Origin: Oscillospiraceae bacterium
GTDB taxonomy: Bacteria; Bacillota; Clostridia; Oscillospirales; UBA929
Assembly (NCBI GenBank): GCA_031254195.1
Contig: JAIRUW010000009.1
Location: forward strand, 13,906-77,905
Length of the DNA: 64,000 nucleotides
Direction: 5' to 3'
The notes under the pieces were generated by a model that was given only the letters and a program-made list of their open reading frames with translations, was not told where the DNA came from and made no database searches. How positions within the stretch are numbered: position 1 is the stretch's first letter; each line of letters opens with the position of its first letter. Shown here in pieces: positions 22,156-22,456 of this stretch. The position numbers and the translations under genes are program-made.

Positions 22156-22184
22156 TTGACAGGAAACGCAAACGGTGGTATTAT
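22156..22184 (+). promoter_or_regulatory. Near-consensus sigma-A promoter driving a small RNA
   Basis: TTGACA (22156-22161), 17 nt, TATTAT (22179-22184) with extended TG; no protein ORF downstream. Confidence 0.75.
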
Positions 22185-22189
22185 ATTGG

Positions 22190-22287
22190 CAGAAAGGGCA
22201 ATACCTAACAGCCATTGCCCATGATACGCTAAGTTACACGAGGTAACCGCCTACCGGTGCAAAGGAGGGCGGTTACTTCATTTTTAT
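22190..22287 (+). ncRNA. Putative ~95-nt antisense RNA (type I antitoxin candidate)
   Basis: Follows the promoter at 22156-22184; 5' hairpin GGGCAAT/ATTGCCC; ends in GAGGTAACCGCC/GGCGGTTACTTC hairpin plus T-tract; antisense to the 3' end of the 24-aa ORF. Confidence 0.6.
22240..22287 (+). terminator. Intrinsic terminator of the small RNA
   Basis: GAGGTAACCGCC (22240-22251) ... GGCGGTTACTTC (22268-22279) followed by ATTTTTATT. Confidence 0.75.
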
Positions 22288-22347
22288 TGCTCGGATGAGG
22301 CTTGCCAGAGCTTGAAGAATTTTACGAAACTCCGTAAGTACGCTCAT
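22273..22347 (-). CDS. 24-aa amphipathic cationic peptide MSVLTEFRKILQALASLIRAIKMK (type I toxin candidate)
   Basis: Not in the supplied ORF track; ATG 22347 preceded by GGGGGTGA SD held in a CCCCC-GAAA-GGGGG hairpin; own promoter at 22428-22456. Confidence 0.7.
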   Translation of the reverse strand: MSVLTEFRKILQALASLIRAIKMK

Positions 22348-22427
22348 CGGCTCACCCCCTTTCGGGGGACAAAGGCCGCCAATATTGCCCCGCAAACAGC
22401 GTTGCCGCCGTTCACCTGCCAGAACGA

Positions 22428-22456
22428 AGAATACCACAAATTTTATGTCATGTCAA
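22428..22456 (-). promoter_or_regulatory. Near-consensus sigma-A promoter of the 24-aa ORF
   Basis: Minus strand TTGACA (22456-22451), 17 nt, TATTCT (22433-22428) with extended TG. Confidence 0.75.

Follow-up and report, generated by a model that had tools for sequence, protein, structure and literature searches.

Within a 64,000-nucleotide stretch of contig JAIRUW010000009.1 (forward-strand positions 13,906 to 77,905; GenBank assembly GCA_031254195.1, an Oscillospiraceae bacterium), hereafter the window, a cassette of about 300 bp forms a candidate type I toxin-antitoxin module: a small open reading frame (ORF) on the minus strand that encodes a 24-residue peptide, and a convergent gene for a noncoding antisense RNA on the plus strand. 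Its neighbors in the window are a gene for a hybrid histidine kinase and a DUF3788 gene. A first-pass annotation of this DNA had described two near-consensus sigma-A promoters with extended -10 TG facing each other across the interval, and we found both of them (Table 1; all coordinates are positions in the window). Sites with at least 10 of 12 promoter matches number only 10 in the whole window, 6 of them with the TG, and about 0.1 convergent pairs within 300 bp would be expected there by chance.

The predicted toxin mRNA has its Shine-Dalgarno (SD) sequence, GGGGGUGA, placed 7 nt ahead of the AUG and locked in a GAAA-capped hairpin that leads into the 24-codon ORF, just as the first-pass annotation had read it. 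The 3′ end of this mRNA is uncertain, lying near a weak hairpin and UUUCU at about 22195. The plus-strand transcript, earlier described as a noncoding RNA of about 95 nt that ends in a strong terminator and overlaps the last codons and 3′ untranslated region (UTR) of the toxin mRNA, agrees with our prediction of a slightly longer RNA; no ORF is conserved in it, and its sequence is the complement of the 3′ UTR and the last 4 to 5 codons of the toxin mRNA. The two genes interlock here, with the antisense terminator and U-tract spanning the toxin stop codon and codons 21 to 24 (ATA AAA nnn AAG TAA); these codons encode the U-tract, and the stop and last Lys codons sit within the terminator stem and U-tract. 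A 47-residue ORF (MAVRYCPFCQYNTTVCVSCQ...; 22072-22215, minus strand) overlaps the antisense promoter and 3′ box and was taken as spurious because the underlying sequence is not conserved as coding among copies of the cassette.

Table 1. Predicted features of the cassette, given as positions in the 64-kb window
Feature	Position	Strand	Remarks
Antisense (antitoxin) RNA promoter	22156..22184	+	TTGACA-17-TATTAT, extended -10 TG
Antisense RNA, predicted ~98 nt	22189..22287	+	5′ stem-loop and intrinsic terminator; ends predicted
Antisense RNA 5′ stem-loop	22196-22220	+	
Antisense intrinsic terminator	stem 22240-22279, T-run 22281-22285	+	13-bp stem; T-run TTTTT
Toxin mRNA promoter	22428..22456	-	TTGACA-17-TATTCT with TG (reads 22456-22428)
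Toxin mRNA, predicted ~230 nt	22190..22420	-	5′ end predicted ~7 nt past the -10 box
Extra 5′ leader hairpin	22392..22415	-	GUGAACGGCG-GCAA-CGCUGUUUGC; long-leader copies only
Long-range helix, 5′ arm	22370..22391	-	GGGGCAAUAUUGGCGGCCUUUG; RNAalifold and covariation
SD-sequestering hairpin	22355..22368	-	CCCCC-GAAA-GGGGG; SD is the 3′ arm
SD sequence	22359-22352	-	GGGGGTGA; arrangement GGGGGTGA-N4-ATG
ORF, 24 codons + TAA	22273..22347 (22347->22273)	-	Peptide MSVLTEFRKILQALASLIRAIKMK
Long-range helix, 3′ arm (3′ box)	22195..22217	-	Plus-strand reading is the antisense 5′ stem-loop

We built a covariance model (R1) from 15 copies of the cassette, using only those that encode the window's peptide type (type A). 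R1 recovered 73 matches (72 distinct sequences) at E < 1e-15 in termite-gut Oscillospiraceae metagenome-assembled genomes (MAGs) and metagenomes. A DNA pattern derived from the ORF and terminator was also scanned over 185,579 species genomes and found 15 loci in 6 of them (Emb289P3bin50, Th196P3bin69, Nt197P3bin64, Nt197P3 bin72, Mx356_bin4, and UBA929), all termite-gut Oscillospiraceae MAGs, together with 59 metagenome contigs, many with record names matching those of termite-gut MAG contigs. Beyond these six collection genomes, the cassette is present in the window's own genome and in one further congener. Thus far the type A cassette has been observed only in termite-gut Oscillospiraceae. 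Viral contigs gave 0 matches to the DNA pattern, and tblastn with the peptide against phage and plasmid collections returned nothing at E ≤ 10; we therefore see no evidence of phage or plasmid carriage.

In the window's own assembly, a 2.24-Mb MAG of 80 contigs, a BLAST search with the 311-bp unit found a second copy at 73% identity. This genome holds two intact and two decayed type A copies, a congener has about 10, and copy numbers in relatives reach about 10 per genome. Homology between copies is limited to 22144-22456, ending at the two -35 boxes, and a promoter-to-promoter alignment holds for 15 copies. The flanks are unrelated: flanking genes are mostly housekeeping (SecA, GltX, IleS/DivIVA, TyrS, DnaJ, and MoeA), the context differs at every copy, and an integrase adjoins one copy only. 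Because homology is bounded by the -35 boxes and the flanks are unrelated, we regard the cassette as an autonomous, dispersed module of about 300 bp. The neighboring DUF3788 gene was examined as a marker of an empty orthologous site; no congener carries it.

The decayed copies in the window's own genome (C76:39278-39426 and C10:2871-3048) retain the promoter, leader, and SD hairpin, and their ORFs are broken off after 6 to 8 codons (MQYIVEVR... and MDLLIE...). The C76 remnant passes directly into the start of a signal-peptide-like gene (MKKLLSFALALALLLA...), where the leader may have been co-opted or the copy may simply have decayed.

The reading frame is open in all full-length copies, which encode 59 distinct peptides, nearly all of 24 residues. 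Among 55 distinct 24-codon copies, Leu14 is written with all six Leu codons and Arg8 with all six Arg codons, and position 16 is Ser in 44, with AGY codons in some copies and TCN codons in others. Residues Glu6 and Arg8 never vary, and Lys9 is replaced by Arg in 2 of the 55. The mean proportion of synonymous differences (pS) is 0.61, versus 0.23 for nonsynonymous differences (pN), giving a pN/pS of 0.37; the invariance of codons 21 to 24 at the nucleotide level is due in part to the search pattern. This codon-level evidence indicates that the ORF is under protein-level purifying selection and is translated. In-frame upstream extensions, such as a 54-residue GTG ORF, were considered and rejected because neither their frame nor their sequence is conserved.

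Type A peptides were absent from a collection of 15 billion proteins by exact look-up, and the only type A entries among 1.84 billion representative proteins searched were five mis-called longer ORFs derived from the cassette. The upstream-extended form is how gene callers mis-annotate these few database entries, all of which are artifacts in which a translation of the leader is fused to the peptide. One product of the same search, P0006 (101 residues), comes from a cassette variant in which the peptide frame has lost its stop (…LTELRKILQALASLVRAINASKTKQPPSF…) and continues for about 50 residues.

Compared with shuffles, the plus-strand RNA folded with z = -4.6 into the 5′ stem-loop and 13-bp terminator, and the minus-strand RNA with z = -5.9 into a structure in which the 5′ leader is paired to the 3′ box over about 20 bp, a helix absent from the first-pass annotation. 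RNAalifold, applied to a MAFFT alignment of the 15 copies, recovered three elements: the leader/3′-box helix, the SD hairpin stacked on this helix, and the terminator. In a separate alignment of the 73 matches, which was fitted to the covariance model and so is biased towards structure, 94.3% of cells are paired versus 35 to 58% in slid controls, and double changes occur in 17 of 36 pairs (141 cells); the MAFFT/RNAalifold run agrees with it, and none of 500 shuffles gave values as high as those observed in the 73-match alignment.

The paralogous cassettes with compensatory stem changes that the first-pass annotation had suggested looking for are present among the 73 matches, where the SD hairpin, the long-range helix, and the terminator all covary. 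The outer long-range helix has compensatory changes at 8 of 8 pairs (one pair is GC in 26 copies, AU in 20, GU in 5, and CG in 4), and one pair of the SD stem is CG in 37 and UA in 22. When 58 copies were parsed, the SD stem was CCTCC/GGAGG in 17 and CCCCC/GGGGG in 15, its loop was a GNRA tetraloop in 37, and the SD-to-start spacing was constant at 7 to 8 nt. We conclude from these covariations that the RNA structure of the cassette is under selection.

Of 57 distinct copies, 54 have an antisense promoter with at least 9 of 12 matches, always the same distance from the 3′ box; 35 of these 54 have at least 11 of 12, and 46 have the TG. Its spacer and upstream DNA diverge among copies. The two-hairpin layout (5′ stem-loop and terminator) is kept in the antisense RNAs of 62 distinct copies, mostly 88 to 103 nt long, with three longer ones of up to 134 nt. 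This pattern of conservation indicates that the antisense gene is under selection. On the toxin side, most copies are preceded by a TTGACA-like element paired with a -10 element, and two leader lengths occur. A mode of action as in SprA1as, in which the antisense RNA would pair in trans with the 5′ UTR or SD sequence, was also considered and rejected, since the predicted pairing was no better than that of shuffles.

Two metatranscriptome runs, the only RNA runs listed, yielded a single contig each (193 nt and 173 nt, both at depth 2), from a ~95%-identical relative, that matches 22234-22409 with 9 and 7 mismatches, respectively, and extends 17 nt into the relative's 3′ UTR. These contigs cover nearly the whole predicted toxin mRNA, beginning 11 nt off the predicted start, and include sequence beyond the antisense RNA. 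They are a weak positive sign that the toxin mRNA is expressed. Searches of RNA runs with two other copies listed no runs, and the same two metatranscriptome runs, compared with a G006 copy, matched it only in the shared terminator.

R1 also matched sister cassettes at full length, with scores of 30 to 57 bits (181.6 bits for the window copy). These matches occur in 20 of the family's 30 genomes, with six more in the window's own genome, and in 15 genomes of other families of the order. All share an identical order of parts: promoter, leader, CCTCC-GAAA-GGAGG SD hairpin, an ORF of 23 to 31 codons that ends in Lys codons, a stop inside the TAACCGCC...GGCGGTTA terminator, the GGGCGAACCGT... 3′ box, and the antisense promoter. 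We use "GNRA-SD-hairpin / TAACCGCC-terminator" scaffold for a full-length R1 match with a leader/3′-box helix, an SD hairpin, an ORF of 23 to 31 codons whose terminal Lys codons lie in the antisense terminator, and an antisense promoter, a definition under which the window cassette qualifies; isolated, terminator-only matches are scattered in these genomes.

The peptides of the sister cassettes differ from type A and are hydrophobic. One set (MSVFEALTLMIAFA...DKKK) matches the Pfam family Hol_Tox with E values of 4e-13 to 2e-5, the Hol_Tox-like peptides match ComI and PepG1 weakly, and one member of this set is annotated by NCBI as a "putative holin-like toxin." Given the full-length R1 homology to Hol_Tox cassettes, we place the locus on a branch of a TxpA/RatA-like type I scaffold in which the antisense RNA overlaps at the 3′ side. 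The first-pass annotation could not assign the peptide to a known toxin family, and in this it stands; the RNA scaffold is no orphan, being homologous to Hol_Tox (TxpA/BsrG-like) cassettes. By this homology the scaffold family includes TxpA/BsrG-type toxins and the type A effector is new: the architecture of the locus belongs with TxpA/RatA and BsrG/SR4, but its peptide does not.

Homology between the ORFs of type A and those of types B to E was suggestive for some pairs and not significant overall, and we take it as no more than a hint. A C-terminal [IL]IRxIKxK motif is common to types A and C, and an N-terminal MxYIV is common to type A and another branch; there are weak hints that type A may have descended from transmembrane toxins through polar substitutions.

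The window's own genome carries two tandem Hol_Tox-like cassettes at C78:35979-36533, encoding MSVYGALMLMIAFAALVLKLLGYIQNQHKK and MTVFEAMILMLAFATLVLTLKDNKKK, and cassettes encoding MGKKLIRFVICAIFALWLLIKFAQKAM-type peptides at C53:186-415 and C48:21855-22104. Adding the sister and type A copies gives at least eight cassettes and three peptide types in this genome. Other genera of the order, and other families, have more peptide types on this scaffold (L047:1501-1707 and L064:1501-1705, which are tandem copies on contig C25 of G023; L144:1501-1699; L145; L147; and L148). Among the peptides on the shared scaffold, MVEWVFMILALVLVLYIIREIKRK resembles type A in having 24 residues and a C-terminal IIRxIKxK, MEYIVAVIILLIVATGYIKSVKK has the MxYIV start of type A, and MGIKVVRVLVFAILLLHIFTINAK is a further type. 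It appears that the scaffold represents a type I family, unannotated and found across the order, whose toxins are exchangeable.

The type A peptide of the window (MSVLTEFRKILQALASLIRAIKMK) has a net charge of +4, from one acidic and five basic residues, and no signal peptide. Its mean Eisenberg hydrophobicity is 0.09 and its hydrophobic moment is 0.46, a moment reached by 2.7% of residue shuffles, and its hydrophobic residues are spaced in an hhxxhxx heptad repeat. The highest Kyte-Doolittle mean over 15 residues is 1.06 to 1.33 in the three commonest type A sequence types and 0.52 in a fourth, versus 2.5 to 3.0 in sister types B, C, and D. A hydrophobic toxin with a predicted transmembrane helix is the usual, though not universal, criterion for type I systems (Fozo et al. 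2010, PMC2887945). A search relying on it would miss this cassette. With this low hydrophobicity and the heptad pattern, the peptide does not form a conventional transmembrane helix; it is predicted to be a surface-active or oligomerizing amphipathic helix, in keeping with the first-pass view that it is amphipathic and not a plain transmembrane helix. Three type A peptides had no match at E ≤ 10 in Pfam, including Hol_Tox (PF16935), the type A peptide had none at E ≤ 10 in NCBIfam, and a profile search of the PDB gave chance 11-residue matches only.

The TxpA/RatA, BsrE-G-H, YonT, and SprG systems are organized with the antisense RNA at the 3′ side, where it and the final part of the ORF overlap (PMC8594479). 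SR4 acts on bsrG through RNase III decay and SD sequestration (PMC8309996). The window cassette is like TxpA/RatA, BsrG/SR4, BsrE/SR5, and BsrH of Bacillus subtilis in its convergent toxin mRNA and antisense RNA, which overlap at the 3′ end of the ORF, and in its sequestered SD sequence, which is partly sequestered in the B. subtilis type I systems as well. Unlike TxpA and BsrG, the type A peptide has neither a Hol_Tox match nor a transmembrane-grade stretch, and it is 24 residues long. BsrG and TxpA have lengths of 38 to 59 residues. Unlike RatA and SR4/bsrG, the cassette RNA matches no antitoxin family in Rfam; a search of Rfam 15 with 21500-23000 returned no family at E ≤ 10 except for chance snoRNA-type matches. 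To our knowledge, a long-range 5′-3′ helix is not a described feature of txpA or bsrG.

In hok/Sok and aapA1/IsoA1, a 5′-3′ long-distance interaction and SD sequestration together lock the toxin mRNA in its full-length form (PMC6733600, PMC9841398). With its predicted 5′-3′ helix and SD hairpin, the cassette is like these Gram-negative systems, to which it has no sequence relationship. Their antisense RNAs target the 5′ or ORF region of a 3′-processed mRNA, whereas the antisense RNA of the cassette would target the 3′ arm of the helix. For the peptide, the nearest type I precedent is TisB of Escherichia coli, a 29-residue amphiphilic alpha-helix with its charges on one face that forms narrow pores (PMC8309996). 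TisB is far more hydrophobic, however, and it crosses the bilayer as a dimer held by a charge zipper of alternating charges, in contrast to the one acidic and five basic residues of type A; its antitoxin, IstR-1, is trans-acting, unlike that of the cassette. Phenol-soluble modulins (PSMs) and leaderless bacteriocins are also of similar length, leaderless, and amphipathic. That likeness is physicochemical only, and they sit with regulators or exporters, not in dispersed cassettes under antisense control.

We propose that the minus strand would give rise to an mRNA for the cationic amphipathic peptide that is kept quiet by its own fold. The SD sequence would be shut in the 5-bp GNRA-capped hairpin, and the 5′ leader would be zipped to the 3′ box by the ~20-bp helix stacked on this hairpin, stabilizing or masking the mRNA as in hok and aapA1. 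The plus strand, whose promoter is stronger and consensus, would produce the antisense RNA, perfectly complementary to the 3′ UTR including the 3′ box. A duplex of about 95 bp would form and, by analogy with RatA/txpA and SR4/bsrG, would most likely trigger RNase III-type decay of the mRNA; it might also alter the mRNA fold. Since the antisense RNA would target the 3′ arm of this fold-back helix, leader and antitoxin would compete for the same bases. We infer that both RNAs are made as drawn and that the peptide is toxic, most likely acting on membranes as a surface-active or oligomeric helix. Membrane toxicity is plausible, and the antisense RNA would neutralize the peptide.

We consider it likely that the locus is a type I toxin-antitoxin-type module. 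The general layout of the class is present (a small ORF of <60 codons, a short mRNA, and an antisense gene) and is conserved across the 73 matches; the first-pass proposal of such a system gains support from the dispersal of the cassette in multiple copies, purifying selection, the antisense promoter kept in 54 of 57 copies, and the covarying helices. Several observations weigh against it. Type I toxins typically have a hydrophobic transmembrane stretch, which the type A peptide lacks, and the invariance of Q12, A13, L14, K22, and K24 is partly an artifact of the search pattern, with S12 found in a pattern-independent variant. The RNA contigs are unstranded, of low depth, and from a relative, and DNA carry-over is possible; no RNA contig matched the antisense RNA alone. 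A canonical terminator does not define the 3′ end of the toxin mRNA. Finally, the SD hairpin is predicted by thermodynamics to stay closed whether or not the 3′ box is present, a prediction that does not account for the activation of translation. A bolder version of the type I reading, which we think unlikely, is that the scaffold has swapped a membrane-spanning toxin for a soluble, cationic, heptad-patterned helix with a mechanism new for type I toxins. The peptide might then be a coiled-coil oligomer or a surface-active peptide directed at a nonbilayer target, or an exported PSM-like peptide.

Other readings give the peptide a different role. We see a slim chance that it is an exported weapon or surfactant, comparable to a leaderless bacteriocin or a PSM-like cytolytic peptide, whose production the antisense RNA merely tunes. 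A 24-residue peptide with no signal peptide, a charge of +4, a moment of 0.46, and low mean hydrophobicity is surface seeking, and such a composition is typical of leaderless amphipathic peptides; yet no transporter, immunity, or modification gene was found among 20 neighboring proteins scanned, the neighbors vary at every copy and are mostly housekeeping, the whole RNA scaffold is common to Hol_Tox-type type I cassettes, and the double translational locks and stronger antisense promoter suit the repression of a harmful product. It is also rather improbable that the peptide is a nontoxic regulatory protein, binding a cellular partner as a soluble amphipathic or coiled-coil helix, in the manner of ComI in competence, and still under antisense control. 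The hhxxhxx heptad, the invariant E6 and R8, and the near-invariant K9 suggest a specific interaction surface, and Hol_Tox-like sister peptides weakly match ComI, but the type A peptide itself has no ComI match, and as many as ~10 divergent copies in a 2-Mb genome, together with decayed copies and dispersal into unrelated intergenic sites, are the mark of selfish or addictive modules and not of a dedicated regulator. That the cassette is a repeated noncoding RNA element or a terminator/insulator module with an incidental ORF seems extremely improbable to us: its strong RNA structure, covariation, and scattered terminator-only matches would fit, whereas an ORF open in every full-length copy, Leu, Arg, and Ser codons that vary while the residue is kept, the pN/pS of 0.37, and an SD-to-AUG spacing held at 7 to 8 nt would not.

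As a type I module, the cassette carries every RNA hallmark of the class, although its peptides were found in the protein collections searched only inside mis-called longer ORFs. The scaffold would be a new, unannotated RNA family for the Oscillospirales, with no Rfam match at the locus, and could be annotated with one covariance model. It also offers a natural series: one regulatory chassis carries an amphipathic peptide in some cassettes and a transmembrane toxin (Hol_Tox or another) in others, which could help to show what makes type I toxins toxic. The module is compact, in that the C-terminal Lys codons of the toxin double as the U-tract of the antitoxin terminator and the antisense target is one arm of the fold-back helix. 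If a toxin swap did occur, it would be a natural re-use of a toxin-antitoxin RNA chassis for a new class of effector.

Elsewhere in the window, a tRNA-Met (CAT) gene lies at 25467-25542 on the plus strand, between DUF2461 and NYN-domain genes, and long ORFs across 25357-25560 are spurious, being artifacts of this tRNA gene. An [FeFe]-hydrogenase-like protein with 4Fe-4S domains, fused to an MCP signaling domain, is encoded at 16427-18562 on the minus strand; its gene is upstream of a stand-alone receiver domain and adjoins that of a 1,090-residue hybrid kinase with two SBP_bac_3 domains.

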